The position numbers and the translations under genes were made by a program. The notes below the pieces were generated by a model. That model did not search any database. It saw only the letters and a program-made list of their open reading frames with translations, and was not told the DNA's origin. From Spirochaetia bacterium (GTDB lineage Bacteria > Spirochaetota > Spirochaetia > DSM-16054 > Sediminispirochaetaceae), in assembly GCA_034520965.1 (NCBI GenBank), contig JAXHMY010000003.1, forward strand, positions 576,001 to 640,000: a DNA stretch of 64,000 bases, written 5' to 3'. Numbering within the stretch: the stretch's first letter is position 1; every line of letters begins with the position of its first letter. Shown one piece after another: positions 15,865 to 35,925 of the stretch.

Positions 15865-15877
15865 GCTTCCATCCTGC

Positions 15878-16843: not shown

Positions 16844-16855
16844 TTCACTATTCTC

Positions 16856-17818
16856 CTACTCAGAACTGGTGTACTGGATCCGCGGGTCGAGTTTTGCATA
16901 AGTAAGATCCACTCCGAGGTTCACCACTATTCTCACCAGTACAATGATGAGTACCACCGCCTGTATCACCGGAAAGTCTCGTCGAAATACCGCGTTCAAC
17001 ACTAAATTACCGATTCCAGGTAGCCGAAACACACTCTCGGTTACTACTGAGCCCCCCAATAAATATCCGATCGAGTTGCCTATTACAGTAACCACCGGTA
17101 TCAGTGCATTCTTCACGATATCCCGGACAACCACGTCCGACCTTTTAATGCCCATCGCACGGGAAGTACGCACATAATCCTTACTCATCACATCGAGCAT
17201 CGACGAGCGCATCATTCGCATAACAATTGCCGAGTATGATGAGCCGAGGGCGAGGCCCGGCAGCAGCATCCTTTGTAAATTCGGGCCCAGCCCATCGCTT
17301 AGAGGAACAAAACCTCCGGCTCCCCAACTTTTCATGAATATCACACCAAACAGGAGGATTAATAAAATACCCTTGAAAAAATTTGGTATCGATATGCCTA
17401 CCAAGGCGAAGACCCTGGCTGCATGATCGATGGGTTTGTTTTGTTTAAGAGCCGAGATAATGCCGGTGGGAATTGCAATCAGCAGGGCCACCACCATTGC
17501 AAAGACTACCAGCTCCAGGGTAACCGTGAAGCGCTCGGCAATCAGATTCGCCACCGGAGCTCCTCTTTGAACACTAATTGACATCCCGAAATCACCGCGC
17601 AGTACATTTCCAAGCCACATAAAATATTGCTCGTGCAGTGGCAGGTCGAGTCCCAACCGTTGCTGCATCTTTTCAACTAAGGCTTGGTCTTGAATCGGAC
17701 CCAACATAACGCGGACGGGATCTCCCGGGGCAATATGCACCAATAAGAAGATGATAATACTGGCGACGATGAGGGTCGGAATTGCCATCATAAATCTTTT
17801 TAAAATATAGATGCTCAC
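16856..17818 (-). CDS. Peptide ABC transporter permease (OppB/DppB-like)
   Basis: Probable GTG start after SD AAGGAG; 'PGDPV', 'LGLDLPLHEQY', 'GDFGMS', 'DYVRTSRAMG', 'RDFPVIQ', 'LDPRI'. Confidence 0.92.
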   Translation of the reverse strand: MSIYILKRFMMAIPTLIVASIIIFLLVHIAPGDPVRVMLGPIQDQALVEKMQQRLGLDLPLHEQYFMWLGNVLRGDFGMSISVQRGAPVANLIAERFTVTLELVVFAMVVALLIAIPTGIISALKQNKPIDHAARVFALVGISIPNFFKGILLILLFGVIFMKSWGAGGFVPLSDGLGPNLQRMLLPGLALGSSYSAIVMRMMRSSMLDVMSKDYVRTSRAMGIKRSDVVVRDIVKNALIPVVTVIGNSIGYLLGGSVVTESVFRLPGIGNLVLNAVFRRDFPVIQAVVLIIVLVRIVVNLGVDLTYAKLDPRIQYTSSE

Positions 17819-17834
17819 CAATAACTCCTTTGAA

Positions 17835-17867
17835 GGCTGAGACGGGAACATATTCCCCGTCTCAGCC
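17835..17867 (-). promoter_or_regulatory. Intercistronic stem-loop after the substrate-binding protein gene (mRNA stabiliser or partial terminator)
   Basis: GGCTGAGACGGG...CCCGTCTCAGCC perfect 12-bp stem. Confidence 0.6.
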
Positions 17868-17881
17868 GCTGCGTATTGCTT

Positions 17882-19570: not shown

Positions 19571-19596
19571 TTCACATCCCTCCTTTTTATTTTAAT

Positions 19597-20349
19597 CTAC
19601 TTCCTGTCTTGAGATTCACTCATAGCTTCATCATAGGAAGTAGTAAACCACTCAGTCTCCGGATCCCTTTTTTTAAGGAAATCCGCTGCATGCTCCTTTC
19701 CTCGATACAGCTCTTTCTCCAGCACCAATAAAGCTGTTTCCAGATCTCTACTCGAAATTGCGTCAAAGAGCTCCGTCAGCTCTTTATGGGTAATAACCGA
19801 ATCGTCCCGGTATTTAAGGGATATCATTCCCAGCTTAAGGAACCTATCCATGTAATTCTCCAGGAGCGAATACAAATGAGTATTTCCGGAGATACGGGGA
19901 AAAAACAGGTGAATACTTTTTTCAAGCTCTAGAAAATTACGCTTGTCGCTCTCCCAATTCCTGAATTGAATTGCCTGTGCGTACTTTCCCATCTGGTTGA
20001 GTCGTTTTTTCATATCCCTTAAATACTTGTCCGTAATCAGTGGTAAGGCCAATTTAATAGCCAGTTTTTCATTTTCCAGACGTACCGGCAACAATTCGAG
20101 GTACTCCTCGTAGGAGATATAATTTACCCGAACGGACTTGCCGGCTTTCGCAACCCAACCGTCTCTGAGCAGCAGCTCAAGCGCCTGTCGTACGGGAGTT
20201 CTACTGACCGTCAGCATTCCCGCCAATTTTCTCTCATTTAGAACCTCACCCTGTTCAAGCTGATCGAACAGAATTGCATTTTTAATTTTCTTGTAAACCG
20301 CATACTTGATTGGTTCCGGCCGTTTAATAGCAAAATCTTCAAAGTCCAC
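19597..20349 (-). CDS. GntR (FadR/FCD subfamily) transcriptional regulator
   Basis: 'VYKKIKNAI..GEVLNERKLAGMLTVSRTPVRQALELL' winged HTH; FCD-like C-domain with 'SGNTHL'. Confidence 0.88.
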   Translation of the reverse strand: MDFEDFAIKRPEPIKYAVYKKIKNAILFDQLEQGEVLNERKLAGMLTVSRTPVRQALELLLRDGWVAKAGKSVRVNYISYEEYLELLPVRLENEKLAIKLALPLITDKYLRDMKKRLNQMGKYAQAIQFRNWESDKRNFLELEKSIHLFFPRISGNTHLYSLLENYMDRFLKLGMISLKYRDDSVITHKELTELFDAISSRDLETALLVLEKELYRGKEHAADFLKKRDPETEWFTTSYDEAMSESQDRK

Positions 20350-20584: not shown

Positions 20585-22354
20585 CTAGGGAGCTTGCCCG
20601 GCAGCATCAAAGTTAACTACCAACCTTTTGAACGCTTCCGGGTCTTCAATTATCAGGGCATGGCCGATATTATCAAAGACCTTTAGTTCGGCCTTTAGAG
20701 CTTCAGCTGTGCGCCGGGCGTGGTCATCACTAATAATCGGATCAAGAGCGCCCCGAATCACTAAAGCTGGGGTGTTAAAACCGGCGGCAGCTTCACTATA
20801 ATCAAACTCGGCCAGAGCAAGGGCATGGTTGAAGTAGGCCTCCCGGTTCATCAGCAGTGCCTCTTTAGTTAAGAGGCTATGCAGGCGTCGATCCTCAGAG
20901 CGGCTGCCCATCACCTTGCCTATGGCGCTCTTCAGTACTCCGTAATGGCGGCGCAAGGCTTCAATACGGGCTTCCGAATCATCCCTTAGGGGCAGGCCGT
21001 CTATCGGTGCCGAATCGATCAGCAGCATCCGGCGGACTTTTTTGGGATACCGTATTGCCAGGGACATAGCAACCGCTCCTCCAAAGGAGTGGCCGGCCAC
21101 ATAACAGGGTCCAAGCCCTAACTGGTCGATGAAAGCGGCCACGTGGTCAGCATAGGTATCGATATCGTCGGTGGTCTCAATGCGGTCGGAACGGCCAAAG
21201 TTCATCAGGTCTATCGCCACAGTGCGGTAGCCGGGCACATCCATAACTTCCCGAAACCACTGGTACGAGCCGGTATTTCCGTGAATGTACAGCAGGACAG
21301 GACCTTCTCCCTGTTCCACATAATACATCTGCTTCCCCTCGATGGTTTCGACAAAGCTGCCCTTTACCGGCTTGAGGCGGTGAAGAAAACGCAGAACCGC
21401 CATATAGGGCACTTGCATCTTGCGGTTCCACATTATGTAAAGCTCGGTAGCAATACCGCTCGGAAGGGCAATCACAAAAATAATAAGCAGTATTCCATAG
21501 ATGAGGGTTAGTGAACCCGGCGGTACTAATTCTTCCAGCACCAGTGCCGGAAGCCCTACAATAATGAAGGATCCAATCAACCCGCCCTCAAGGAGAATCG
21601 CCCCGCCGATGATAATTATCAGCAAGAGGTCGATTGCCGCCATCAGGCCAAAGGTTACCGGTTGAATTACCCCCTGGGTAACCGCATACATCGAGCCGGC
21701 CAGGGCGCAGAAGACGGCACTTACAATAAATGCCTGCAGCTTGTTGGCGGCAAGGTTAGTGCCGTAGGAGCGCGCCGCCACCTGGCTGTCACGAATCATA
21801 CGAAACTTTACCCCGAAGGGCGATTTGAGAATTACCAGCCCGATAGCGTAGAACAACAGAAATAGGACGGTCATGAGAACAAAGGTGGCCACATCTCGAA
21901 TCGGCCCCGACCTCGTAAAGCTAAGGATATGGGGAATGTTGTATACCGGGTTGGGAAAGGGCATGGCACGAATGGCCTGTTCCATACCAACTCCGAATGC
22001 GATGGTGGCGATGGCCAGATAATAGCCGCGCAACCTCAGCGCCGGCAGGCCAATCAGCAGGGCAAACACCGTTGCAATGAGCAGCCCGATGAGAGTTCCC
22101 AACAGCATACCCCCGTATACCCCAGGGAGGAGCTCGGTAAAAATAGCTGTGGAGTAGGCGCCGATAGCCATGAAGGCGGCATGTCCCAGAGAAAGTTGGC
22201 CGGTATTACCGATAATGATCACCATGCCCATACCGGCGATTGCCCAGACTAGCACAAGCGACAAATTTCCCAGAGTATAGGTTCCACCGGTCAGTAGAAA
22301 TGCGAACAGCCCTGCCGTCAGTATCCCGCTCCCAAGTAAGAATATCCGTTTCAC
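20585..22354 (-). CDS. LivM-type ABC permease fused to a C-terminal alpha/beta hydrolase
   Basis: 'GQLSLGHAAFMAIGAY', 'PALRLRGYYLAIAT', 'PSGIA' then 'GEGPVLLYIHGNTGS', nucleophile 'GHSFGG', 'GALDP', 'IGHA'; single uninterrupted 589-aa ORF. Confidence 0.88.
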   Translation of the reverse strand: MKRIFLLGSGILTAGLFAFLLTGGTYTLGNLSLVLVWAIAGMGMVIIIGNTGQLSLGHAAFMAIGAYSTAIFTELLPGVYGGMLLGTLIGLLIATVFALLIGLPALRLRGYYLAIATIAFGVGMEQAIRAMPFPNPVYNIPHILSFTRSGPIRDVATFVLMTVLFLLFYAIGLVILKSPFGVKFRMIRDSQVAARSYGTNLAANKLQAFIVSAVFCALAGSMYAVTQGVIQPVTFGLMAAIDLLLIIIIGGAILLEGGLIGSFIIVGLPALVLEELVPPGSLTLIYGILLIIFVIALPSGIATELYIMWNRKMQVPYMAVLRFLHRLKPVKGSFVETIEGKQMYYVEQGEGPVLLYIHGNTGSYQWFREVMDVPGYRTVAIDLMNFGRSDRIETTDDIDTYADHVAAFIDQLGLGPCYVAGHSFGGAVAMSLAIRYPKKVRRMLLIDSAPIDGLPLRDDSEARIEALRRHYGVLKSAIGKVMGSRSEDRRLHSLLTKEALLMNREAYFNHALALAEFDYSEAAAGFNTPALVIRGALDPIISDDHARRTAEALKAELKVFDNIGHALIIEDPEAFKRLVVNFDAAGQAP

Positions 22355-23280
22355 GCCTTCCTCCCGACTTTCCCTGCAAAGAGCCCCATAGGTTTGAATA
22401 CCAGAATCAAAATGATGAGAAAAAAGATTATAGCTGTCTCATATCCATCCAAGGCCGGAACGATATCAATCAGCCGTTCCAGAACACCAATCATGAGTCC
22501 TCCCCAAATCGCTCCGAATAAACTGCTGAAGCCACCCAAAACTGCCGCGGTAATACCCAGCAGCTGTGTGTTCATTAGCATGGTCGGATGCACCCGGGTG
22601 ATAGGGGCAATCAAGATACCGACCACCACCGCCAGGGTAATCGAGAGGCCCCACACAATCGAGTCGACACGATTGGTATTGATGCCCACCGACTGAGCCC
22701 CCACGGGGTCCTGTCCCCGGGCTCGAATTGCCAGACCTATCTTTGTATATTTCATGAGGGCGGCCATGGACACCGAAATTACCAGGGCAATCAGCATCAC
22801 CGCAATATCGTTCCGCCGAAACACAACCCTTATTCCCTCAAACAAACCGGCCCCCTCAAATATAAAGGGAGGCCCCGGCAGGAGCCGTGGAAAGGATTCA
22901 TAATCCGGGCTCCAGATCAGGTTAGCCGCCCCTTCAAATACCAGCAGCAGACCCAGGGTTATCATAAGCATGCTCGCCGGGGAGACGTGCTTCACCCGGC
23001 GCATGAGCAGTAGATCGATTAAAACACCAAATACCGCCCCTGCTATTAGCCCCACCGGTATCGCCGCGAACAGTGCTAACCGGCCATCCAGTAAATTAAG
23101 ACCGATAAATGTCTGCATCGCACTTAAGGTAATCAGTACACTCACCATAGCCGAGTACCCGTGACTGAAGTTCAGGGTACCCGCCGATCGAAAGATCATC
23201 GCAATCCCAAAGCCCATCAACCCGTAGAGTGCACCCTGTGGAATGCCTATTGTTATTGCTTGAAGTAACTCACTCACCAT
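22351..23280 (-). CDS. LivH-type branched-chain amino acid ABC permease
   Basis: 'GALYGLMGFG..IFRSAGTLNFSHG', 'TKIGLAIRA', 'AAVLGGF', 'KPMGLF'. Confidence 0.92.
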   Translation of the reverse strand: MVSELLQAITIGIPQGALYGLMGFGIAMIFRSAGTLNFSHGYSAMVSVLITLSAMQTFIGLNLLDGRLALFAAIPVGLIAGAVFGVLIDLLLMRRVKHVSPASMLMITLGLLLVFEGAANLIWSPDYESFPRLLPGPPFIFEGAGLFEGIRVVFRRNDIAVMLIALVISVSMAALMKYTKIGLAIRARGQDPVGAQSVGINTNRVDSIVWGLSITLAVVVGILIAPITRVHPTMLMNTQLLGITAAVLGGFSSLFGAIWGGLMIGVLERLIDIVPALDGYETAIIFFLIILILVFKPMGLFAGKVGRKA

Positions 23281-23286
23281 CTGCTC

Positions 23287-23988
23287 CTACATGCCCAAAT
23301 ATGCTTTGCGCAGGCTGTCGTCCTTGAGTATCGCATCGGCATTTCCGGAATGGACGATGCTGCCGTTCTGCATAACATACGCCCGGTCGCTAATCGACAG
23401 CGCCTTGGTCGCATTTTGCTCAACCAACAACACCGACATCTTTTCACGCAGGCCCTTAAGAACCCGAAACATCTCATCAACGATCACCGGAGCTAAACCA
23501 AGAGAGGGCTCATCGAGGAGGAGAACCTCAGGCGAGGCTACCAGTGCCCGCCCAACGGCGAGCATCTGCTGCTCTCCACCGGACAAAGAGCCGGCCAGCT
23601 GGCGGCTTCGTTCACGAAGAATCGGAAACAGCTCATATACCGTGTGTACATTCGCCGCAAAATCACCGCGGACGAAGGTTCCCAGCCGCAGGTTCTCCTC
23701 TACGTTAAGCTCGGGAAATATGCGCCGATTTTCCGGACAAAGCACCATCCCTTTGGTGGTGGGCTCCGTAGAGTTCTTCCGTTTGAGGGCTTCCCCCTTA
23801 AGCTCGACAAGTCCACGGCTTTTGACAATTCCCATTAGCCCAAACAGGGTTGAGGTCTTTCCGGCGCCGTTAGCCCCGAGTATGGAAACAATCTCACCCT
23901 TCTCCAGACTGAAGGAAATTCCCTTTACTGCGTGTATCGGCCCATAAGAGACCTTTAAATCTGATACTTTAAGCACTGGTTTCCTCAC
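23287..23988 (-). CDS. LivF-type ABC ATP-binding protein
   Basis: 'GANGAGKTS', 'PENRRIFPELNVEENL', 'LSGGEQQMLA', 'LLDEPSLGLAP', 'VEQNA', 'AYLG'. Confidence 0.93.
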   Translation of the reverse strand: MRKPVLKVSDLKVSYGPIHAVKGISFSLEKGEIVSILGANGAGKTSTLFGLMGIVKSRGLVELKGEALKRKNSTEPTTKGMVLCPENRRIFPELNVEENLRLGTFVRGDFAANVHTVYELFPILRERSRQLAGSLSGGEQQMLAVGRALVASPEVLLLDEPSLGLAPVIVDEMFRVLKGLREKMSVLLVEQNATKALSISDRAYVMQNGSIVHSGNADAILKDDSLRKAYLGM

Positions 23989-24733
23989 CTAAATACACCC
24001 GAATAACCTCCGGATTGTTGGCTATCTCATTCGGAGTTCCCTCCGCGATCTTCTTCCCAAAACTCATCACTGAAATACGATCCGATATTTTCATTACAAT
24101 ATTCATGTCATGCTCAACCAGCAGAATACTCATGCCTTGCTCACGACAGAGATTCGCCAGAATTTCATCCAGCTCTTCGGTCTCCTGATGGGTCAGTCCG
24201 GCCGCCGGTTCATCGAGCAGCAGCATCTCCGGCTCCGAAATAATGGCCCTTCCAATCTCCACCCGCTTCTGCATCCCGTAGGAAAGGTTCTCCGGTATGT
24301 TGAACAGGACCGAAGTAATTCCCATTGTCTCGGCTACCGCCATAATGCGCTCTTCCACTTCCTGGGCAAACTTCTTATGGGCTCCCAAAAAAATAGAAGG
24401 AAAGGCCTTTCGAAAATGAAACGCATACCCGGCATACAGATTTTCATAGACAGTCATCTTGGTAAACAGCTGCAGGTTTTGAAATGTACGTGCGATTCCC
24501 TTATGAATCATTTTATGGTCCGGAAGGCGGGTTATATCTTTCCCCTTAAAAAAAACCTTGCCCTTAGTTCTCGGTCCTATACGCGTAATGGAGTTAAAGA
24601 GGGTAGTTTTCCCGGCCCCGTTCGGTCCTATCAGGGCATGAATTGTTCCCTTTTCGATTATCATCGAAAAATCATCAACCGCAACCAAACCGCCGAATAC
24701 AACCCCGACGTTGGCTATTTCGAGCATTTTCAT
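23969..24733 (-). CDS. LivG-type ABC ATP-binding protein
   Basis: 'FGGLVAV', 'GPNGAGKTT', 'GIARTFQN', 'LSYGMQKRVEI', 'LLDEPAAG', 'VEHDM'. Confidence 0.93.
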   Translation of the reverse strand: MKMLEIANVGVVFGGLVAVDDFSMIIEKGTIHALIGPNGAGKTTLFNSITRIGPRTKGKVFFKGKDITRLPDHKMIHKGIARTFQNLQLFTKMTVYENLYAGYAFHFRKAFPSIFLGAHKKFAQEVEERIMAVAETMGITSVLFNIPENLSYGMQKRVEIGRAIISEPEMLLLDEPAAGLTHQETEELDEILANLCREQGMSILLVEHDMNIVMKISDRISVMSFGKKIAEGTPNEIANNPEVIRVYLGEETSA

Positions 24734-24761
24734 ACTTTATTGCCTCGTATTTTTATAAAGT

Positions 24762-24788
24762 GCGGGGTGCGAACACGCCGCACCCCGC
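24762..24788 (-). promoter_or_regulatory. Intercistronic stem-loop downstream of the binding-protein gene
   Basis: GCGGGGTGCG...CGCACCCCGC 10-bp stem. Confidence 0.55.
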
Positions 24789-24830
24789 CCAATTTCGCTC
24801 TTCAAATTCCGCAACACAAATCCAAACTTA

Positions 24831-26048
24831 TCAGTTTGGGTCTTTATACTCGATCCACTCACTAACCGGAAACCATTCGCCCTTTTGAACTTCCATAACG
24901 TACATACTCTGCTTACCAAGTCGGCAGGTGGTATCTTCAGGATCATGCTCACTATAGGTAACACCCAGTGCAAGATATCCGTCCCACCCATTCATACTCT
25001 CGAGGGCGTCTACCAGAGCTTCCCGGGTTAAATCTTCACCTGCACGTCTTGCTGCTTCGGTAAAAATTTCGGCGGCAACCATACCTGCTACACCATAGGC
25101 ATTCGGCACAGCCCCTTCTTCGCCAACATAGTCGGCGTACCACTGCCAGGGCGGGAAATCCGGGTTGTCAAAGTCGGCCAGTACCCATGCCATGGACTGA
25201 ACATTTTCCATTACCTCGGCTCCCAGCGCATCTATAAGCGTTTGGTCGGCGTTGGCGTAGGTTAACAGTTTGGTCGGTTTGGTCAAACCAAACTCATATG
25301 CCTGTTCAAGAAATTGGTCACTCTGAGGGCGAAACAGTACGGTCATGATCCCGTCCACATCGGCACTTTCAAAACGGCTGATAGCCGTTGAAAAATCGGT
25401 ATCTCCGCTTTCAACTGAAATTGCCTCTACGATCTCCGCATCGGGATACATCTCGATGGTTTCCATCATCGAATCGTAGGCATCCTGTCCATCCTCTGCT
25501 GCCCTGTAAAGGACACCGAGACGCTTATGGCCAAGCTCTTCTACCAAGTAGTTGACCATTAGGTTTCCTTCCAAGAGGTAATTAGGCTGGAAGGGAAACA
25601 CATATTCTTTAGGCGGTACTGCAAGTTCGGTAGCTCCTCCGCCCTGGTACACAAAGGGTACCCCCCGATCGTTCAAATAATCCATAACCGCCAATACGTT
25701 GGGCGAACCGAGGCTTCCGACCATTGCGAACACTCCATCGCGTTCCACCATCCGGCGGGTTAATGTAGTGGTGCTCGAAGGATCAAACTGATCGTCCGCC
25801 ACTTGCAGGTTCACCTTGCGTCCGTGAATACCACCCTCTTTATTCACATGGGCAAAATAAGCTTGCATACCCTCTGCCAAGGGAGTTCCAATACTGGCTA
25901 CCGGCCCGGATAGAGCCTGGGTACTTCCAATAAATATCTCATCTTCACTTACTCCCGGCGTACCTTCCTGCTGACCGCCGCCGAATACCGGCAGAAGCAA
26001 GACAAGACAAAAAACTACGCTTAAGAACATCATTTTTCTATTTCTCAT
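24831..26048 (-). CDS. Liv/LIVBP-like ABC substrate-binding protein
   Basis: Signal peptide, 'PGVSEDEIFIG..ALSGP', 'VNKEGGIHGRKV', 'DDQFDP', 'GSLGSP'. Confidence 0.9.
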   Translation of the reverse strand: MRNRKMMFLSVVFCLVLLLPVFGGGQQEGTPGVSEDEIFIGSTQALSGPVASIGTPLAEGMQAYFAHVNKEGGIHGRKVNLQVADDQFDPSSTTTLTRRMVERDGVFAMVGSLGSPNVLAVMDYLNDRGVPFVYQGGGATELAVPPKEYVFPFQPNYLLEGNLMVNYLVEELGHKRLGVLYRAAEDGQDAYDSMMETIEMYPDAEIVEAISVESGDTDFSTAISRFESADVDGIMTVLFRPQSDQFLEQAYEFGLTKPTKLLTYANADQTLIDALGAEVMENVQSMAWVLADFDNPDFPPWQWYADYVGEEGAVPNAYGVAGMVAAEIFTEAARRAGEDLTREALVDALESMNGWDGYLALGVTYSEHDPEDTTCRLGKQSMYVMEVQKGEWFPVSEWIEYKDPN

Positions 26049-26189
26049 ATTCTCTCCTTTTATAAAACTAAAAACTAATAAAAACTCACTGAAACTCGGT
26101 CTTCACCGATTCTTTTTCGATGCACTTTCAAGGTGCAGCCGGAGCCCCGCGGATATCCGCAGGGCAGCCGCCCGCATCATAACACTTTT

Positions 26190-27569
26190 TTAGAAGTTCA
26201 CCTTAACACCAGCAGAAATCTGCTGTTTGGGATCGCCAGATTCTATATCGTTCCAAGAAAACGTGTTCCAGTCAAATTGCCGCGCAATACCAGCATTGTC
26301 TTCATTAAGAAATCCGTATGTAGCATACAGAGTTGCCTGTTCCGTTACAGCGTATTCAACACTCACATCTGCAAAATAGCCGGTTCGCGCCTCACGCATT
26401 ATGGAATCCGTAAAACCATGTACTTCTTCAAGTGCTTTCCTTTTATACTCAAAGAAGTGATACATACCACCGGCCACAATAGCGTTCAGGCCGGGGCTTA
26501 CTTCGTAATTTACCCGCGCAGATGCCAATGCCTGATGGTCATCCTCATAACCTGCCCCACCCATATTAAATACATTGGTCGGGTTTACGGTGTTACGCCC
26601 GGAATTGCCGATCATGCTCGAGAAGGTATCGAACCCCGGCTCTACCAGGGCTCCATTGAATACAAACAGTCCCTGCGCCTCGACAACCAGTACCTGAGGC
26701 TGCAGATCGCTGACCTTAGAAAAATCGAGTGCAGGACGCAGCATCGCTGCAAAGTTGAAAGTGTTCCATAATCCTCCACTTTCTGTATTTATTCCACCGA
26801 AAGTACCATCCTCGTTTAGGTCCCCAAATGTATCACGGTCATTGTCTATGGGGAACATAGTGTGTGCGGCAAACTTAAGGTCGATTGGGCCTGCCGGACC
26901 TTCCATGAAGGGACCAACAATGGCAACACTGTCTAGCAGGAACGGAGGAGTTGCTGTGGCATCGCCGACAAAGTAGCCGCCCAAGAGTCCCCAGAGGATC
27001 TTGCTTTGCAGATTATAGCCTACCGCCGCTGCAGCAAACAGGTGACCGTTACTGGAAACGTCTTCGATTCCAACATCCTGGCGGAGGTCGTACAGGGCTA
27101 ACAGGCTCAGAGGGCCACCGAGAACCTTGTCCAGATCGTACTGGTAGGCAATCCGATCGCGACGGTCGCCGGAGGTAGTAAGGCCGTGGCCCCAATTCGC
27201 TTCTTGGCGGCCTACACTCAATTTTCCACCGAGAAAGGGCATCTCCACATAGCCGATATCAAGGCCGAAATTTTCTGTCGAGGAACTATCATCCCACTCG
27301 GTAACTCCTCCGCCGCCGGGTTTACGGTGGTCACCGCTCCAGTACTGGTCGTAGAGGCGCAGGCCTACATGGACCTTTACATCGCCCCCCAGGTCAAAGG
27401 TCGGTGCGATGCGCAGGCTCTGGTAGAATCCCTGAATATCGTCCGCAGTCTCTCCCTGCATAAAACCCTGCAGCTCATAGGAACCGCTCCAGTCCGCGTC
27501 TATGGCCGATACAGTCATCGGCACAAGCATGGCTATCACGATTGCTGCCACTAATAAACTCTTTTTCAT
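26190..27569 (-). CDS. Probable outer-membrane beta-barrel/porin
   Basis: Signal peptide, alternating amphipathic strands, 'LSVGRQEANWGHGL', C-terminal 'ISAGVKVNF' with terminal Phe (BAM signal). Confidence 0.7.
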   Translation of the reverse strand: MKKSLLVAAIVIAMLVPMTVSAIDADWSGSYELQGFMQGETADDIQGFYQSLRIAPTFDLGGDVKVHVGLRLYDQYWSGDHRKPGGGGVTEWDDSSSTENFGLDIGYVEMPFLGGKLSVGRQEANWGHGLTTSGDRRDRIAYQYDLDKVLGGPLSLLALYDLRQDVGIEDVSSNGHLFAAAAVGYNLQSKILWGLLGGYFVGDATATPPFLLDSVAIVGPFMEGPAGPIDLKFAAHTMFPIDNDRDTFGDLNEDGTFGGINTESGGLWNTFNFAAMLRPALDFSKVSDLQPQVLVVEAQGLFVFNGALVEPGFDTFSSMIGNSGRNTVNPTNVFNMGGAGYEDDHQALASARVNYEVSPGLNAIVAGGMYHFFEYKRKALEEVHGFTDSIMREARTGYFADVSVEYAVTEQATLYATYGFLNEDNAGIARQFDWNTFSWNDIESGDPKQQISAGVKVNF

Positions 27570-27614
27570 CTTAGAAACCTCCTGTAATCTTCATCTTTTA
27601 ATTTTTCTGATATG

Positions 27615-27690
27615 TGAATCTATTCTCACCCTAAGTTTGTAAATCGTCAAGTTTTTTCTATAATTTTTTTGTAACATGAATCATCTCTCA
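27615..27690 (-). promoter_or_regulatory. Two TGAATC-N3-TCTCA operator sites flanking the porin promoter
   Basis: TGAATCTATTCTCA 27615-27628 and TGAATCATCTCTCA 27677-27690; minus-strand TTGACG (-35) lies between them. Confidence 0.7.
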
Positions 27691-27694
27691 CAGT

Positions 27695-28432
27695 TTACAA
27701 AGAAAAACCGCCGTCTACTCGCAGCACCTGGCCTGTTATAAAAGAGGCATCGTCGCTTGCCAGGAAGGTAACTGCATTGGCTACCTCCTGCACTTCCCCC
27801 AAACGCTTCAACGAGGTGCGGGAGGTAAAGTTTTCAATAAGCTTATCCGGTACGGTCTCGATCATGGGAGTGTTGATAAATCCCGGAGCCACCGCATTTG
27901 CCCGTACGGCCGCGCCCTTTCGTGCAAACTCCCTAGCCCAGCTTTTGGCCATCGCGACAACACCGGCTTTAGTTGCGGCGTAATTAGTCTGTCCCATATT
28001 CCCGTCAAGGCCTACGATACTCGAGATATTGACAATAGAACCGCTGCCTTGCTGCATCATGAGGGGACCGATTTCACGGGCCATGTTAAAACTCCCCTTT
28101 AAGTTAATGCTGATTACCGCTTCCCAGGCCTCGTCATCCATTTTATGAATAAGAGAATCCTTGGTTATTCCCGCATTATTGATCAGCACATCAATGCGCC
28201 CGTCACTCTCCGTCACTTCTTTGACGAAGCTGCGTATGGCCTCTGGGTCAGTTACATCAAGTTTTACCCCTTTTAAGCCGCTTCCCTCTTTTTCAACCGC
28301 CTCCAGTGCCGAAGCATCGACATCGCAGGCGTAAACCTTTTCAGCCCCGGCGGCAACAAAGCTTTCGGCAATAGTTCTACCGATTCCCTTAGCTCCACCG
28401 GTGACTACACAAATTTTTCCGTGAAGATCCAT
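27695..28432 (-). CDS. fabG: SDR 3-oxoacyl reductase (FabG/acetoacetyl-CoA reductase PhaB-like)
   Basis: 'VTGGAKGIG', 'NNAGITKD', 'NISSIVG..GNMGQTNYAATKAG', 'VAPGFINT'; 'ACDVD' after beta2 suggests NAD(H) preference. Confidence 0.85.
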   Translation of the reverse strand: MDLHGKICVVTGGAKGIGRTIAESFVAAGAEKVYACDVDASALEAVEKEGSGLKGVKLDVTDPEAIRSFVKEVTESDGRIDVLINNAGITKDSLIHKMDDEAWEAVISINLKGSFNMAREIGPLMMQQGSGSIVNISSIVGLDGNMGQTNYAATKAGVVAMAKSWAREFARKGAAVRANAVAPGFINTPMIETVPDKLIENFTSRTSLKRLGEVQEVANAVTFLASDDASFITGQVLRVDGGFSL

Positions 28433-28464
28433 CCATTTTCCTCCTTTTTTTCTATTAAATCAGA

Positions 28465-29484
28465 TTAGTATTCGGGATAATCTCCCCAATGAACCACGGT
28501 AGAGGCCCATACAAAGCCCAGTCCGGCCCCGACCATAACAATCTTGTCCCCATCGTTTATTTTTCCCTGTTCCACACCCAATTCAATTGAGTGAACCTGA
28601 TCGTTCTGCCCCAAATGACCGTACTCATCCAGATAAGTGGTCTGGCTCGCCTTTAAGTTAAGCTCTTTAAGTACCGCATCATGGGCGGAGCGCTTGAAAT
28701 GCAGAATTGCCAGATAATCGATGTGCTCGTCAGTAAGCCCGCCGGAGCGCTTCAGTGATTCGCGTATCACATGATAAAAGTTAGGCATGGTACGTTCACC
28801 GAGTTTTTTCTTGAAAGACTCCACATCCCTTACCACAAAATGCGCCTTCTCGGCATCTTCCGACTTGGGAGGCCAGGCTTTAGCCCCTAGAACAGGAACC
28901 ACACAATCTTCGGCAAAACTGCCGTCGCCCCGGAAGGATGACCCCAGAACCACATTGTGGTTGTACCCCTTCTCCAGCAAAACCGCCGCCCCGGAGGCAC
29001 CGATATCCGCCATAAAGCTGGTTTCCTTTACGCTTAGATCGATAAGGTCCACGTTGCGATATCCACTTACCAGCAGCACACGGTGTAACTCGTCCTTGGC
29101 AAGGAGCATGGATTTAGCCACATCAAGGCCGGCCATCATAGAACCGCACATCGCCTCCATATCGAAGGACCAGGCATTTTCGGCCCCCAGTTCATGGGCA
29201 ACCTTCAGACCGGCAAGCCAGCAGGGATAATCCTTATGCTGCCCCCCGTTCCAAATAACCAAATCGATATCCCCGGGGTCGATTCCCGCCTGCTCTACCG
29301 CCCTTCTCGCCGCCTGAAGTCCCATATAGCTGGGGGAATCCTCAGGGCCGGGAATCGGCTTTTGCTTCACCCCGAACTTACGGGCAATTACATCCTCGGG
29401 TATACCCGTTTTTTCTCCTATCTCAGCTGCAGTCATTACTCTTGTGGGTAAGTAAGTACCTAAGCCCCGAATGCCTATATTCAT
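28465..29484 (-). CDS. 3-oxoacyl-ACP synthase III-like protein (non-canonical, Cys-His-His)
   Basis: 'GIRGLGTYLP', 'FDMEAMCGS', 'YLAILHFKRSAH', 'YLDEYGHLGQND', 'GAGLGFVWA'. Confidence 0.88.
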   Translation of the reverse strand: MNIGIRGLGTYLPTRVMTAAEIGEKTGIPEDVIARKFGVKQKPIPGPEDSPSYMGLQAARRAVEQAGIDPGDIDLVIWNGGQHKDYPCWLAGLKVAHELGAENAWSFDMEAMCGSMMAGLDVAKSMLLAKDELHRVLLVSGYRNVDLIDLSVKETSFMADIGASGAAVLLEKGYNHNVVLGSSFRGDGSFAEDCVVPVLGAKAWPPKSEDAEKAHFVVRDVESFKKKLGERTMPNFYHVIRESLKRSGGLTDEHIDYLAILHFKRSAHDAVLKELNLKASQTTYLDEYGHLGQNDQVHSIELGVEQGKINDGDKIVMVGAGLGFVWASTVVHWGDYPEY

Positions 29485-29506
29485 GCATCACCTCAAATCT
29501 AAGTGT

Positions 29507-29552
29507 TGAATCATCTCTCAATTAGTATAGAAGCCTTTGTAAAATCGGTCAA
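29507..29552 (-). promoter_or_regulatory. sigma70 promoter TTGACC-17-TATACT with operator TGAATCATCTCTCA over the start site
   Basis: -35 at 29547-29552, -10 at 29524-29529, operator 29507-29520. Confidence 0.78.
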
Positions 29553-29673
29553 GTTTTTTCTTTCATCAATTTTTTCGGCTATTTTGCCCCCTTCTAAGGC
29601 CAAATGTTAGGGGTACCGTACCTATACAAGGCTTGATCCTTTAAAATTACCTGGTTTTAGCGAAAGTTTTTCC

Positions 29674-29727
29674 TTGCCAGGAAACAGAAACAAATTTATA
29701 ATAAATTGTATTATGAATCACTTCTCA
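29674..29727 (+). promoter_or_regulatory. sigma70 promoter TTGCCA-17-TATAAT with operator TGAATCACTTCTCA
   Basis: -35 29674-29679, -10 29697-29702, operator 29714-29727 just before SD GGAGG. Confidence 0.78.
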
Positions 29728-29741
29728 TTATTGGAGGAATT

Positions 29742-30742
29742 GTGGAACATACAGGAATCAAGGGACTGGGGCTTTACGTACCCGGAGAACCTATCGACAA
29801 TACCGAACTGCAGAGGCTTGCCGGTATCGAGTTTAATGTAGACAAAATAGAAAACAAAATCGGTATAAAAAGACGTCATATTGCAAAGCTGCGTAACACC
29901 GGCGAAACTACCGCCGATTTTGCTAGCAATGCCGCCCGGGAGGCCATCGAAGACGCGGGGATCGATCCGCAGGAGGTGGCCTATTTTATCGTCGGAACCG
30001 ATACTCCGGAATACATCTCCCCTTCCACCGCCATGCTCGTCCAAGGCCGCATCCAGGGGGGCCGAAAATATACCGGCTCCTTTGACATAGGCAGCTCGTG
30101 CGCGGGTTTCGTGACCGCCTATGATGCTGCATCCCGAATGCTTGCCGGGATCCCGAGGCTCGTTACGCGGTGGTAGTAGGGGTGTATAACATGCCCGCCT
30201 ATGTGCGTGACGGAGATGCCTTCGGCTATTCTATCTTTTCCGATGGAGCGGCTGCTTTTGTACTGGAAAAGCGTGATACCCAGAGCTATCTGGGAAGCCA
30301 GTTTATTACCGACGGTACGCAGTGGGACTATGTAGGGGTCTACGCCGGCGGAACAAGGATGCCGGTGACCCATAAGAGGCTAGAGGAGGGGGAATACGGC
30401 CTGCAGCTGCTGCAGCGCCTGCCGGGAGACCGCAACGTGAAGCTATGGCCGCCATTGGTCAAGCACCTTTTACAGAAAACCGGGGTAGAGCTCTCTGCGG
30501 TGGATCACCTCATTTTCACCCAGATCAACCGATCGGTTATCGAGCAGGTGATGGATATCCTCGAACTGCCGATGGAAAAGACCACCACCGTTATGGATAA
30601 ATACGGCTACACCGGTTCAGCCTGCGTTCCGATGGCCTTCTACGATGCGGTAAAAGCCGGCCGCATTAAACGGGGCGATACGGTTATGTTTGTGGCCTCC
30701 GGAGCCGGTTTAGCTGTGGGCAGCAATCTGTTTGTATATTAA
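29742..30742 (+). CDS. Second 3-oxoacyl-ACP synthase III-like protein; -1 frameshift at GGG 30147-30149
   Basis: GTG start; 'GIKGLGLYVP', 'IGIKRRH', 'TDTPEYISPST', 'FDIGSSCAGF'; adding one G gives 'AGDPEARYAVVVGVY' joining to 'IFSDGAAA', 'IFTQIN', 'KYGYTGSACVP', 'ASGAG'. Confidence 0.88.
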
Positions 30743-30756
30743 AGGAGTTACAGGTT

Positions 30757-32067
30757 ATGAAAGACTGGAATAAAGATTACCAGCAACGACTCATTACTAC
30801 TGAAGAGGCGGTACGGCATATTAAATCTAATGACGATATTATCGTCGGCCAGTGTGCCTCTGAGCCTCAGGGGCTGATGTCGAAAATTCACACCATGCGT
30901 GACAAGGTGGAAGGGGTCAGAGTGTTTAGTGTGCTCACCCTTCAGGCCTACGATTTCTACATGAAACCTGAAATGGAAGGCCACTTTGAACTGGCAAGCT
31001 GGTTTCACGCTCCCGGTTCCCGCAAAGCCCTCAAGGCCGGACTAAGCACGGTAACTTACGTACCGAACATGCTTCACCGGGCGGCCATGGACCGTATACA
31101 GGCGAGGAGGCCGAATATTTTCTTTGGCACCTGCACCCCGCCGGATTCTAAAGGCTTTGTCTCGCTTTCCCTGGGAATTACCTATGAGAAGGACGTGCTG
31201 GAGGCGGCGGAACTGGTAGTGCTGGAGGTAAACAAGAACCTCCCCCGCACCTACGGGGACACCCATGTACACGTGGACGATGTGGACTACTTTGTCGAAA
31301 ATCATCAGGAACCACCTACCCTGCCCATGCCGGAACCGGACGAGACCGATCAGGCCATTGGAAACTACGTGGCCGAGCTGGTGGATGACGGCTCTACCAT
31401 CCAGCTGGGAATCGGAAACATCCCCAACGCGGCTGCCCTGGCCCTGCAAGGCAAGAAGGATCTGGGAGTACACACCGAAATGGTAGTTGATTCGATGGTA
31501 GATCTCCATGAACGGGGGGTTATTACCAATAAGAAAAAGAGCCTGTTTAAAGACAAATTTGTCTGCACCTTCGCTTTTGGTTCAAAAAAACTGTACGAAT
31601 GGCTCGATGATAACATGGCGGTGGAGTTTCAACGCGGCTCCTGGGTCAACGATCCGGCGGTTATCAGACAAAACTCCAGAATGGTCTCTCTTAACACCTG
31701 TTTAAATGTGGATATGACCGGACAGGTGGCCAGCGAATCAATCGGCACCACCCAGTATTCTGGTACGGGAGGGCAGACAGATACCGCGGTGGGAGCCAAA
31801 GAGGCCTATGACGGACTCGGCAAGTCGATTATTGCCTGCCGTTCAACTGCCAAGAACGGTACGCTCAGCACAATCACTCCCACCCTTCGTGAAGGTACTG
31901 CGGTTACCCTGCATCGGAGCAATGTCGACCATATCGTCACCGAGTACGGAATAGCCTACATGCGAGGACGAACGGTGCGGGAGCGGACAAGAAACCTAAT
32001 TGCCGTAGCCCATCCGGATTTCCGGGAAGAACTGACCCAAGGGGCTAAAAAGCTTGGGTATCTTTAA
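30757..32067 (+). CDS. Acetyl-CoA hydrolase/transferase family (4-hydroxybutyrate CoA-transferase-like)
   Basis: 'EVNKNLPRTYGD', 'DGSTIQLGIGNIP', catalytic 'DLGVHTEM', 'GQVASESIG..QYSGTGGQ', 'IVTEYGIA', 'AHPDFREEL'. Confidence 0.92.
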   Translation: MKDWNKDYQQRLITTEEAVRHIKSNDDIIVGQCASEPQGLMSKIHTMRDKVEGVRVFSVLTLQAYDFYMKPEMEGHFELASWFHAPGSRKALKAGLSTVTYVPNMLHRAAMDRIQARRPNIFFGTCTPPDSKGFVSLSLGITYEKDVLEAAELVVLEVNKNLPRTYGDTHVHVDDVDYFVENHQEPPTLPMPEPDETDQAIGNYVAELVDDGSTIQLGIGNIPNAAALALQGKKDLGVHTEMVVDSMVDLHERGVITNKKKSLFKDKFVCTFAFGSKKLYEWLDDNMAVEFQRGSWVNDPAVIRQNSRMVSLNTCLNVDMTGQVASESIGTTQYSGTGGQTDTAVGAKEAYDGLGKSIIACRSTAKNGTLSTITPTLREGTAVTLHRSNVDHIVTEYGIAYMRGRTVRERTRNLIAVAHPDFREELTQGAKKLGYL

Positions 32068-32115
32068 TATTACAGAAAGCTTTCACATTACATAAGTAAA
32101 GAGAGGTATAACTAT

Positions 32116-33312
32116 ATGAAACGAGTAGCAATTGTGGCCGCCAAACGGACGGCTATCGGCACCTTCGGGGGCATGTTTTCGGGGGTATCGGCGGTTGAGC
32201 TGGGGATCCACTCCCTAAAGGCCGCGCTGCGGGACGCAAAGATCGAGCCCAATCAGATTGAAGAGGTTATCGTCGGTAATATTCTTTCCGCCGGATTGGG
32301 CCAGAACGTGGCCCGCCAGATCGCTGTTGGGGCGGACATACCAGTCCAAGTTCCAAGTTACGGGATAAATAAACTCTGCGGCTCGGGACTCAAATCCATT
32401 ACTCTGGGGGCAACGGAAATTGCCGTGGGCCACTCCGATATTATTGCCGCCGGAGGCACGGAGAACATGACCCAGGCTCCCTATGCCGTACCCAAAGCGC
32501 GTTACGGGGCTAAGATGGGCAACACAGAAATGGTGGATCTTATGCTGCGCGACGGTTTGTATGACGTGTTTAACGAGTATCATATGGGAGTAACCGCCGA
32601 AAACCTGGCCGACCGGTGGAACATCAGCCGGGAAGAGATGGATATCTTTGCCGCCGAGAGCCAGAATAAGACGGAGGCGGCGGTTGATGCCGGGCGTTTT
32701 AAAGCAGAAATCGAACCGATCCAGATCCCCCAACACAAGGGAGAGCCCCTTAACATCGACACCGACGAACATTTCCGGCGCGGGGCAAGCCCGGAGGGGC
32801 TGGCCAAACTGAGACCCGCATTTAAAAAAGACGGAAGGGTCACCGCGGGTAATTCTTCGGGCATCAACGACGGTGCGGCCTTTGTGATTCTCATGTCCGA
32901 GGAGAAGGCGGGCGCCCTTGGGATAGAGCCGCTGGCCTTTATCAGCGGATTCGGCTCCAGTGGGGTTGACCCGGCGTATATGGGCTACGGTCCGGTTCCG
33001 GCCACCACACTTGCTCTAAAGCGGGCCGGATGGACACTTCAAGATATCCAGCTGGCGGAGCTCAATGAGGCCTTTGCCGCCCAGTCATTGGCGGTGCTCA
33101 AGGGAATGGAGCAGGAGCTGGGCGGAATCGACCCCTCAATTGTGAATGTAAACGGCGGTGCCATCGCCCTAGGACATCCGATAGGCGCTTCGGGAGCCCG
33201 CATTTTGGTGACCCTGCTCCATGAAATGGGCTCGCGGGATGTAAAGAAAGGACTCGCTACCCTTTGTATCGGCGGCGGGCAAGGCATAGCTTTACTCGTG
33301 GAACGGCAATAG
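32116..33312 (+). CDS. atoB: Acetyl-CoA C-acetyltransferase (thiolase)
   Basis: 'RTAIG', 'NKLCGSGL', 'HMGVTAE', '[13 protein letters not shown]', 'ELNEAFA', '[17 protein letters not shown]', 'LCIGGGQG'. Confidence 0.93.
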
Positions 33313-33510
33313 GGCTGCACTAAACACCATCCCCGGTACTATCTGCGGCGCATCCGCTCAGTTATACCGGGGGTATGGAAATCACAGCCCTTTCACTCTA
33401 TACTGTGTCTACAATCTGTTAAGAAAATAGCCGAATACGGCTATTTTCGTTGTTTCGGTTGCCGCGAAGCGGCATGCGAAACTATAATAGCAAAAGGGGT
33501 TCTACCGGTC

Positions 33511-34638
33511 ATGGGAAAAACAGCAGGTAAAACGGTCACAAGAGAGAGATTGATTCAATCAGCTATAGACCTGTTTTCCAGTTGCTGGTATGAGACGGTG
33601 TCCATCGCAGAGATTTGCCGCAACGCAGGCCTCTCCAACGGAATTTTCTATAACTATTTTGCTAAAAAAGAAGATATTTTCAAGGAGATTCTCGATCGCT
33701 ATCTCGCTATTTTTTCAGACCGGCTTAACCAGACTGTCGAACCGACCATAGAGGGAGAACTAAACCGTTTCTTGAAGGTGATGTTCGAAGTGGGCCGAGA
33801 GCATCGCAAACTGCTTACGGTCTATCGCGAGGGGCAGTACCGGTTTATACGGTATGAAAAAAAGTTTCGGGAAATATGCATGAGCTATTTTACCCGTATG
33901 TACAATCGAGAGATTAATGAAGCGGAGTATATCTTTTTGATTTCCGCAGCCCGCTTTGTGTTTATCCGTTCAATCTATGAACAAACTGATATTGATCTTG
34001 ATAAGCTGCATGCCCTCCTGCTCTACGGATTCTTTACCGAAGAGATCGGCGACCCGAGCCGCATTCTTACCACCGACCACACCCCCCTCCCACCTCCGGA
34101 GGATAGCTCACGCAGCAAGCTTCTTGAAGCCGGCATCAAGCTCTTCGGAAGACGCGGCTATTATAAAGTCAACGTATATGAGGTCGCAAAACAAGCGGGG
34201 TTTTCGGTGGGAACCTTTTACCTCTATTTCCCTACCAAAGAAAAGTTTCTCGCAGAAATAGTCGATACTATCGGCTCACGTACTCGCCACTTCATCTCTA
34301 CCAATCTGGATACCTCCCTGAACCGTACAGAACAGGAAATTCAAGGGATGTACCTCTTTTACCTACACTTTAGATATCATAAGAGTTATTACTCCATTGT
34401 ACTCGAGGCGGAGTTTGTGGTGAACCAAAAGGCTACCGCCTACTATGATAAGTTTGAACAGGGATACCAGAAGACACTCAATCACATAAAAATTGATGAT
34501 AAAAAACTTGTTGCAAATGCCCTTATGGGAATCTCACACTATTTCGGAATCGAATCTATTTTCAGTAAAAATGTATCCGACATCGAAGCGACAATTCTGC
34601 AAATCGGAGAACTACTGCACAAGGGCCTGCGACAATGA
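33511..34638 (+). CDS. Tandem double-TetR transcriptional regulator
   Basis: Two TetR HTHs: 'LIQSAIDLF..VSIAEICRNAGLSNGIFYNYF' and 'LLEAGIKLF..GYYKVNVYEVAKQAGFSVGTFYLYFPTKE'. Confidence 0.9.
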   Translation: MGKTAGKTVTRERLIQSAIDLFSSCWYETVSIAEICRNAGLSNGIFYNYFAKKEDIFKEILDRYLAIFSDRLNQTVEPTIEGELNRFLKVMFEVGREHRKLLTVYREGQYRFIRYEKKFREICMSYFTRMYNREINEAEYIFLISAARFVFIRSIYEQTDIDLDKLHALLLYGFFTEEIGDPSRILTTDHTPLPPPEDSSRSKLLEAGIKLFGRRGYYKVNVYEVAKQAGFSVGTFYLYFPTKEKFLAEIVDTIGSRTRHFISTNLDTSLNRTEQEIQGMYLFYLHFRYHKSYYSIVLEAEFVVNQKATAYYDKFEQGYQKTLNHIKIDDKKLVANALMGISHYFGIESIFSKNVSDIEATILQIGELLHKGLRQ

Positions 34639-34651
34639 GGAGGGAAGTATA

Positions 34652-35422
34652 ATGAAAACTCAGACGGTCAAGGTAAATGGAATCGATATCGCCTACAACA
34701 CTTCCGGGTCAGGAATGCCTTTGTTGTATATCCACGGAAACACAGGATCTAAGCTATGGTTCGAAAGGGTTATGGAAATCGAAGGGGTGTGCACCTTTGC
34801 CCCGGACATGCCAAACTTTGGAGAATCAGAGCGTCTCTCCACAGCCGATATCGACGAGTACGCCGATTATATGCGTGATTTCATCTTAACTCTTAAACTG
34901 TCCACCCCCCTCCCTGTAGTAGGACACTCACTGGGAGGGGCCGTAGCTATATCCCTGGGGCTGCGTAACCCCGAACTGATCTCCCGGCTTATTCTGGTGG
35001 ACTCCGCACCCATGGACGGCCTAAAAACCCCTGAAGAATACTACCCCGTTATCGAACAATACAAAACCGACCAAAACTTGCTACAGCAGGCACTCCAGGC
35101 AGTTACTCCCACTATGGATGACCCCGGTTTTCTTGAAAAGCTGGCAGAACAGGCGATGAAAATGAACCCGATAGCCTTTGCCGGCAATGCCCGTGCCCTT
35201 GAACGATTTAACTACCAGGGGAAGGGAGCGCAGTTCGACAAACCCGTCCTGGTGATAGTAGGCGAGAAGGATGTTATCATCAGCCGGGATATGGCGAAAG
35301 CGACCGCGGACGCCTTTCCTAAGGGAGAACTTAGAGTGCTTGAAGGCGTCGGCCATTCTGTGATGGTCGAGGATCCGAACACGTTTATCTCCCTTGTCGA
35401 AGAAAATATTCGGGCACGCTGA
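34652..35422 (+). CDS. Alpha/beta fold hydrolase (paralog of the domain fused to LivM)
   Basis: Start MKTQTV after SD GAGGAGG; 'LLYIHGNTGS', 'GHSLGG', 'VGEKD', 'GVGHS'. Confidence 0.9.
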   Translation: MKTQTVKVNGIDIAYNTSGSGMPLLYIHGNTGSKLWFERVMEIEGVCTFAPDMPNFGESERLSTADIDEYADYMRDFILTLKLSTPLPVVGHSLGGAVAISLGLRNPELISRLILVDSAPMDGLKTPEEYYPVIEQYKTDQNLLQQALQAVTPTMDDPGFLEKLAEQAMKMNPIAFAGNARALERFNYQGKGAQFDKPVLVIVGEKDVIISRDMAKATADAFPKGELRVLEGVGHSVMVEDPNTFISLVEENIRAR

Positions 35423-35442: not shown

Positions 35443-35925
35443 ATGAATAAGAAAAAGTCGGCTAAGAAAAGTGTTAAAAAGAGGCTGGGCGCCGGAATCG
35501 CAGTTGCAGTGGCCATCATTCTGCTGTCCACCCGTATGGGCCTTGTATCGATAATTCACCAGGGTGATCCGCCGAAGGCTGCCGAGCTCTGCAGTGAAGC
35601 CATCCCGTGGCGGGAGGTGTGGAACGCGCCCGAGCAGTACCGGGGAGAGGTGGTCGCGGTGAAAGGCACAGTTGCGACCACCGCCTTTATTTCCGGTATG
35701 AAAGGAAAACCGACCTTTATCAACCTCGGCAATCCCCATCCCCGCACACCCCGTTTCGAAATTCTCATTTGGGAAGAAAACCGCCCTTCCTTCCTGGCCG
35801 GCCTGCCCGCGCCCCCCGAACTGCAGTTCGACCAGCAAAGCATCTGTGTGGCGGGAACCGTGGAATTACACGAGGGGGTCCCGCAGATTGAAATCCGGGA
35901 TCCGGTGCAGATAATGCAGCAGTAA
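35443..35925 (+). CDS. Membrane-anchored hypothetical protein, probable OB-fold
   Basis: N-terminal TM; 'GEVVAVKGTV..PTFINLGNPHP..FEILIW..ICVAGTVELHEGVPQIEIRDPVQI'. Confidence 0.65.
   Translation: MNKKKSAKKSVKKRLGAGIAVAVAIILLSTRMGLVSIIHQGDPPKAAELCSEAIPWREVWNAPEQYRGEVVAVKGTVATTAFISGMKGKPTFINLGNPHPRTPRFEILIWEENRPSFLAGLPAPPELQFDQQSICVAGTVELHEGVPQIEIRDPVQIMQQ

Follow-up and report, generated by a model that had tools for sequence, protein, structure and literature searches.

The described systems close to the one considered here include acyltransferases with the fold of 3-ketoacyl-acyl carrier protein (ACP) synthase III (KAS III) and the enzymes that mobilise poly-3-hydroxybutyrate (PHB). In ChlB3, the triad Cys113/His296/Asp301 serves acyl transfer (PMC9573744), and the cleavage of PHB by CoA has a precedent in PhaZa1 of Cupriavidus (PMC7147478). 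Spirochaetales are reported among the top orders on polyhydroxyalkanoate (PHA) biofilms, with no link drawn to the present genes (PMC6566015). Here we describe a gene cluster at 20585..35422 of a 64-kb stretch of a Spirochaetia genome (GenBank assembly GCA_034520965.1, contig JAXHMY010000003.1, positions 576,001 to 640,000; this whole stretch is called the window), in which a Liv-type ABC importer is combined with two KAS III-like genes, KAS1 of family PRK06840 in the leftward arm and KAS2 in the rightward arm. It is a real, conserved and apparently uncharacterised system, and we give about even chances to the reading that the cluster, under a common operator-like box, imports small (R)-3-hydroxyacyl esters, most likely 3-hydroxybutyrate (3HB) oligomers from other organisms, which would be oxidised to acetyl-CoA.

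No description of the cluster, nor of a role for PRK06840 or KAS2, was found in the literature searched, which was mostly open-access and without supplements, and the available parts of PMC5674127, PMC7236355, PMC9971093 and 10.1101/2025.02.21.639450 do not mention the cluster. The lower pathway is textbook chemistry.

Gene linkage and the operator-like boxes

Leftward, KAS1 is followed by a short-chain dehydrogenase/reductase (SDR), a 459-aa barrel-like protein, a binding protein, two ATPases, LivH and a LivM-hydrolase fusion, and rightward KAS2 is followed by a CoA-transferase, a thiolase, a double-TetR regulator and a hydrolase (Table 1). All the genes that the original prediction, made from the sequence alone, had named for the two divergent arms were recovered in place by the list of open reading frames (ORFs) and by profile searches, and no ACP, FabD or dehydratase gene is among the ORFs of 20585-35422, as it had stated.

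The linkage of these genes was found in related loci across phyla. The main set consists of 80 of the 280 stretches encoding a KAS1 relative (63-96% identity), from Spirochaetota, Thermotogota, Bacillota and Holophagaceae, the closest relatives of the window in this search being Spirochaetaceae. Salinispira, Marinitoga, Mesotoga and Oceanotoga are among the carriers available in culture. In the 34 loci that were fully flanked (7.5 kb or more to the left and to the right), TetR was found 34 times, Liv genes 33, the hydrolase 32, the CoA-transferase 31, the thiolase 27, the SDR 26, KAS2 24 and the barrel once. The PRK06840-type KAS1 family also occurs in 31 of 401 Bacillota genomes sampled, and the 32 Bacillota loci analysed, from 29 genomes (one shared with the main set, some truncated by contig ends), have an acid-activating enzyme in 30 cases (CoA-transferase 22, ligase 8, never both), a transporter in 29 (Liv 23, Na+ symporter 6), an SDR or MaoC in 18 (both in one), a hydrolase in 18, and a thiolase and KAS2 in 6 each. 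MaoC is present in three Holophagaceae loci that have no SDR. In each of the three haloarchaeal plasmid regions viewed, KAS1 comes after a Liv operon, and in the Salarchaeum region it is accompanied by hydrolase, ligase and MaoC. Distant lineages, then, have a ligase instead of the CoA-transferase, MaoC instead of the SDR, and a symporter instead of the ABC transporter, and the thiolases of the clusters are of two non-orthologous types that never co-occur. What stays constant is thus transporter, activation and KAS1, the other steps being filled by exchangeable analogues.

The box pattern TGAATC-N3-TCTCA is matched five times in the 3.35-Mb genome, and four of these matches fall at the cluster, within 2.1 kb. 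Rather than one operator shared by the arms, as first proposed, there are four boxes, of which two stand at the divergent promoters, one apiece, and the other two precede the barrel gene. A looser pattern derived from the window is present in the 450 bp ahead of KAS1 in 64 of 75 loci, where 0.02 would be expected (the remaining 5 of the 80 loci had too little flank to be included), and with a matrix built from 112 distinct sites the four cluster boxes are the top-ranked sites of the genome. Five further matrix matches fetched from the next ranks were all inside ORFs, giving no wider regulon. The tetR-hydrolase pair has no preceding box, having instead its own promoter-like site after a terminator-like hairpin. 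Because neither the promoter scan (20 versus 17.5) nor the terminator scan (20 versus 20.0) showed overall enrichment, only the position of such sites beside the boxes was used. The fact that the double TetR is present in all the fully flanked loci makes it the predicted binder of the boxes, through which it likely represses. The original prediction of a co-regulated system for import and CoA-dependent catabolism is supported.

Several further observations concern the boxes and regulators. A displaced KAS2 gene has its own box in one locus (L143) and none in another (L146), and in locus L148 several genes have their own box, with a flavodoxin-like gene nearby. The leftward promoter regions 27615-27690 and 29507-29560 are near-identical around the -35 site and also share the box, as if the barrel gene had arrived with a copy of the promoter. 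In some loci MalT-like TPR/BTAD or sigma-54 activators take the place of TetR (L116, L117, L119, L120, L130; L113, L114, L123, L124).

Table 1. Features of the cluster and their positions in the window
Feature	Position	Strand	Remarks
LivM-type permease with C-terminal alpha/beta hydrolase fusion	20585..22354	-	Pfam BPD_transp_2 + Abhydrolase_1; S423/D538/H565
LivH-type permease	22351..23280	-	profile searches
LivF-type ATPase	23287..23988	-	profile search
LivG-type ATPase	23969..24733	-	profile search
HAAT-family substrate-binding protein	24831..26048	-	Peripla_BP_6; far from LivJ/LivK
Barrel-like protein, 459 aa	26190..27569	-	signal peptide, C-terminal Phe; predicted outer-membrane beta-barrel, accessory
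Operator-like box 1	27615..27628		overlaps promoter-like -10 of barrel gene
Operator-like box 2	27677..27690		before barrel gene; pattern and matrix match
SDR, FabG/PhaB-like	27695..28432	-	NAD-type Asp37; predicted (R)-3-hydroxyacyl-CoA dehydrogenase
KAS1	28465..29484	-	KAS III fold, family PRK06840; C113, H262, H290, D295
Operator-like box 3	29507..29520		just downstream of leftward promoter-like site 29552-29524
Operator-like box 4	29714..29727		just downstream of rightward promoter-like site 29674-29702
KAS2	29742..30742	+	second KAS III-fold gene; frameshifted near 30146 in assembly
Family I CoA-transferase (acetyl-CoA hydrolase/transferase family)	30757..32067	+	Pfam
Acetyl-CoA C-acetyltransferase (thiolase)	32116..33312	+	only close copy found in genome
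Terminator-like hairpin	33423..33448	+	between thiolase and tetR
Double-TetR regulator	33511..34638	+	two TetR_N stretches (Pfam); 34/34 fully flanked loci
Stand-alone alpha/beta hydrolase	34652..35422	+	S93/D207/H235; 43% identical to fused domain

The KAS III-like pair and its partner proteins

KAS1 scores 441 bits on NF005308 (PRK06840), where the cut-off is 315; no functional study of this family was found in the literature, and its name is an annotation. The predicted model (pLDDT 89) has the KAS III/FabH fold, with no close solved relative. The position of the catalytic Asn of FabH is taken by His290, followed by Asp295. The Cys-His-Asn triad of FabH is kept in neither KAS protein, the corresponding residues being C113/H262/H290 in KAS1 and Cys/Thr/Tyr in KAS2, where the Cys alone is retained; the original prediction of non-canonical KAS III enzymes is upheld in this respect. 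The GHLGQND stretch of KAS1 aligns with GHLGASD of ChlB3, i.e. the Cys-His-x4-Asp motif. Its His-Asp pair is conserved throughout the 80 close proteins and the 38 proteins of distant loci, and in 80 of 92 full-length representatives; either Cys or Ser occupies the nucleophile position, and His262 is variable. We infer from the sequence that KAS1 performs acyl transfer and not a Claisen condensation. In Bacillales loci (L102:12990-14855, L104, L111, L112), where the nucleophile position is Ser, a 620-aa NHL-repeat protein is encoded directly after KAS1, and two clusters (L148 and L127) have two KAS1 paralogues each.

The KAS2 gene was found where it had been predicted, but a one-base shift near 30146 breaks its reading frame. 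Forty relatives have the gene intact, one of them at 94% identity, and at the run in question contigs of related strains carry an additional G. A rough check of the assembly gave signs of frameshifts in 7 of 44 target stretches, two of them being the same pyruvate:ferredoxin oxidoreductase-like gene; a salt-pan metagenome run gave no contig across the site. The intact relatives, the extra G and the frequent frameshifts make an assembly error likely, and the latter also mean that broken genes in this genome need careful reading. A hydrogenase gene is likewise in pieces in this assembly.

A search of 231 genomes from the window's class detected KAS1 in 28; KAS2 was detected in 27 of these and in no other genome, and the 28th has a piece of KAS2 at a contig end. 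Several of these pairs are non-adjacent. This patchy pattern suggests a joint function of the two proteins within the class, where kin are not independent; outside the class KAS1 often occurs without KAS2, as in many Thermotogota and Bacillota loci.

The SDR has an Asp after the second strand (Asp37), kept in 55/55 and 10/10 homologues, at a position where the fatty-acid-synthesis-linked FabG of the same genome has SRT, and its top PDB matches 4NBT and 4NBU are listed as NAD-bound. This NAD-type Asp points to oxidation, in agreement with the dehydrogenase originally proposed. FabG/PhaB and MaoC are both R-specific, and from the SDR family together with its exchange for MaoC, the SDR would be R-specific and the intermediate an (R)-3-hydroxyacyl-CoA. 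No BdhA was found above the cut-off; AckA (acetate kinase), RnfC and FeFe-hydrogenases are present in the genome.

On the import side, the binding protein scores 77 bits on PRK15404 (LivJ/LivK), where the cut-off is 477, and its best PDB match has an E of 2e-21. The LivM-hydrolase fusion is found in 18 of the 80 loci, with the hydrolase domain probably on the cytoplasmic face; in locus L114 an ATPase is fused to LivM at the same end. Both hydrolases have a lipase box (GHSFGG or GHSLGG) and the downstream Asp and His of a full triad, a generic feature of the fold, and among NCBIfam families the Bacillus PHB depolymerase model is the best for both. In several loci (L033, L048, L069, L099, L064), the cluster hydrolases appear to have signal-peptide-like or membrane-anchor-like starts, hinting at exported esterases, and in others (L042, L051, L067, L087 and more) a second hydrolase type (LNGIxMS, GxSYG) stands beside the HGNTG type or replaces it. 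The outer-membrane barrel of the original prediction stands in so far as its Atlas neighbours are porin- or alginate-export-like (TM-score about 0.7), but it has no Pfam or NCBIfam match and, being in 4 of the 80 loci, lies outside the conserved core as a local add-on. Its single-sequence fold (pLDDT 33) was not used.

To the left, a GntR regulator and a peptide-type (SBP_bac_5) ABC operon adjoin the cluster on the same strand (13909-20349), and to the right are a 160-aa ORF (35443-35925, +) and a 501-aa ORF (35971-37476, -), both without Pfam match. In the 80 related loci there was no match to the GntR regulator or to the 501-aa ORF and one to the 160-aa ORF, and because of this near-absence all three were excluded from the system.

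Direction and substrate of the proposed pathway

The following route can be hypothesized. The ester would be taken up by the barrel and the Liv-type ABC transporter, and the permease-fused and free serine hydrolases would release the acid. KAS1 may accept the acyl group of the ester at Cys113 and transfer it to CoA; KAS2 would be its partner or a second transferase. Free acid would be activated by the CoA-transferase with acetyl-CoA. The NAD-type SDR would then convert (R)-3-hydroxybutyryl-CoA to acetoacetyl-CoA, from which the thiolase would give two acetyl-CoA and acetate kinase ATP; NADH would be disposed of as H2 via Rnf and the hydrogenases, making acetate and H2 the predicted end products. 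The parts of this proposal differ in strength. A catabolic route through (R)-3-hydroxyacyl-CoA is probable. That the substrate is 3HB oligomers could equally well be right or wrong; they fit a C4-type CoA-transferase, an acetyl-CoA thiolase, an R-type step, esterases, and the butyrate link of locus L114, where the module is joined to crt-bcd-etf-hbd-thl. Thiolysis by KAS1 is possible, at slightly less than even weight. More tentative still, and to our minds doubtful, is the generalization that the PRK06840 proteins are ester thiolases, i.e. KAS III-fold acyltransferases run catabolically, in which cleavage of imported 3HB oligomers by CoA keeps the energy of the ester bond as (R)-3-hydroxybutyryl-CoA.

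A number of findings weigh against this proposal. By overall fold and sequence KAS1 is nearer to FabH than to CerJ or ChlB3, neither of which is among the 50 fold matches listed for it, the fold lists being led by FabH entries. On the PhaZ model NF050089 the hydrolases score 108.5 and 98.6 bits, where the cut-off is 300, and in the PDB they match an unrelated carboxylesterase as well as they match PhaZ. The hydrolase is absent in 14 of the 32 Bacillota loci, as is SDR/MaoC in 14, and KAS2 was not found in the one Thermotogota genome searched. The secreted-depolymerase domain PF10503 was not found in the 86%-complete genome, nor in any of the 31 Bacillota carriers of KAS1 (1 of 401 Bacillota genomes overall), and PhaC was found in 4 of these 31 and in 21 of the 370 genomes lacking KAS1 (p 0.12, the related genomes among them not being independent). 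Energetically, the thiolysis of an oxygen ester runs uphill.

The same catabolic logic might serve another substrate, either (R)-3-hydroxy or 3-oxo acyl esters or amides other than PHB, such as lipid-derived 3-hydroxyacyl units, acyl-homoserine lactones or 3HB substituents of glycans, or free 3-hydroxybutyrate or acetoacetate, which we regard as rather unlikely without being negligible. The ligase of the Bacillus loci, another point against 3HB, resembles long- and medium-chain acyl-CoA ligases, so that the acid may exceed C4; the hydrolases fit models of enol-lactonases and esterases almost as closely as they fit PhaZ, and KAS1 carriers show no association with PHB genes. Against these stand a CoA-transferase of the butyryl/4-hydroxybutyryl type and an acetyl-CoA thiolase, which fit C4, and the lack of any acyl-CoA dehydrogenase or crotonase in this cluster. 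A free monomer would leave the hydrolases and both KAS proteins without a role. Free 3-hydroxybutyrate oxidised by this route nets, by our own estimate, about one ATP, which ABC import consumes; as an argument, therefore, an oligomer substrate or thiolytic cleavage is what would make the importer pay. Among 60 + 20 proteins scanned from 124 neighbour groups there was neither a PHA gene nor a glycerol enzyme, nor any other clue to the substrate that recurs. The CoA-transferase itself has 4-hydroxybutyrate CoA-transferases as its closest solved structures (E 1e-107), which both counts against 3HB and, with hydrolases that could open lactones, invites a role in the use of 4-hydroxybutyrate or gamma-butyrolactone; yet the 86%-complete genome gave no match to PF03241 (the dehydratase family), crotonase, Hbd or MaoC, no such dehydratase is among the recurring neighbour families scanned, and we consider such a role quite improbable.

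The direction could also be reversed, with the thiolase and SDR making (R)-3-hydroxybutyryl-CoA, the KAS-like acyltransferases esterifying an acceptor to give an osmolyte or oligomer, and the ABC transporter serving re-uptake. Conversion of thioester to ester is downhill, CerJ and ChlB3, which share the motif, are biosynthetic formers of esters or thioesters, and the best-matching public run is a salt-pan metagenome, possibly the source sample. Yet the SDR is NAD-type, a hydrolase is fused to the importer, and 26 of the 32 Bacillota loci lack the thiolase while transporter and activating enzyme are retained, making synthesis improbable. Taken at face value, the automatic names, namely Liv-type genes, a FabH fold and a FabG-like SDR, would suggest branched-chain amino acid import with fatty-acid priming, which is very improbable indeed given that neither KAS keeps Cys-His-Asn, that the score of the binding protein falls well short of the LivJ/K cut-off, that the module is patchily distributed (28 of the 231 class genomes), and that a canonical fabH/fabD/fabG locus lies elsewhere in the genome. 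The view of the original prediction that fatty-acid synthesis is unlikely is supported.

If the import and oxidation of (R)-3-hydroxyacyl esters is accepted, a widespread family now labelled fatty-acid synthase (28/231 Spirochaetia, 31/401 Bacillota, Thermotogota, Holophagaceae, haloarchaeal plasmids) gains a testable function, and the defined operator box allows an inducer to be easily screened. Should 3HB oligomers be the substrate, the cluster would point to an uptake route, and to organisms acting as secondary consumers, in the turnover of PHB in digesters and anoxic sediments, and the KAS III fold would have a catabolic use. Should the ester-thiolase proposal also be true, the route would be widespread and unrecognised, with fermenters that neither make nor depolymerise PHB scavenging its fragments, KAS2 as a dedicated spirochaete partner, and a hydrolase tethered to the importer.

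Comparison with known systems

PHB mobilisation (Bacillus PhaZ, NF050089, PDB 8YNV; PhaB/PhaA; PhaJ) shares with the cluster serine hydrolases leaning towards PhaZ, an SDR or MaoC, and a thiolase, but the hydrolases are far below the PhaZ cut-off, no match to class III/IV PHA synthase was found in the 86%-complete genome (the class I/II models were not searched), and the substrate would be imported from outside. The Cupriavidus PhaZa1 is not known to have a KAS III fold. For the SDR, the NADH-dependent FabG homologues 4NBT, 4NBU and 4NBV are the three best PDB matches, with the NAD-type Asp in common.

Like the PqsBC heterodimer, KAS1 and KAS2 are two divergent KAS III-fold proteins that occur together, but KAS2 keeps an invariant Cys, and KAS1 occurs without KAS2 in the Thermotogota and Bacillota loci mentioned above. 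FabH resembles KAS1 in fold (TM-score 0.85, Z about 39, 21-24% identity) and in the active-site Cys, and differs in that the Asn of its triad is replaced in both KAS1 and KAS2, which are below the TIGR00747 cut-off, with no ACP or FabD nearby. ChlB3 (PDB 7EQI) and CerJ (PDB 3S3L) share with KAS1 the KAS III fold and a nucleophile with the His-x4-Asp that replaces the FabH Asn, while the similarity to KAS1 has an E of only about 1e-11 to 1e-12, and KAS1, unlike them, keeps the His244 position of FabH. ChlB3 and CerJ serve antibiotic synthesis, with carrier proteins or sugars as their targets, whereas KAS1 is encoded in what is likely a catabolic import cluster.

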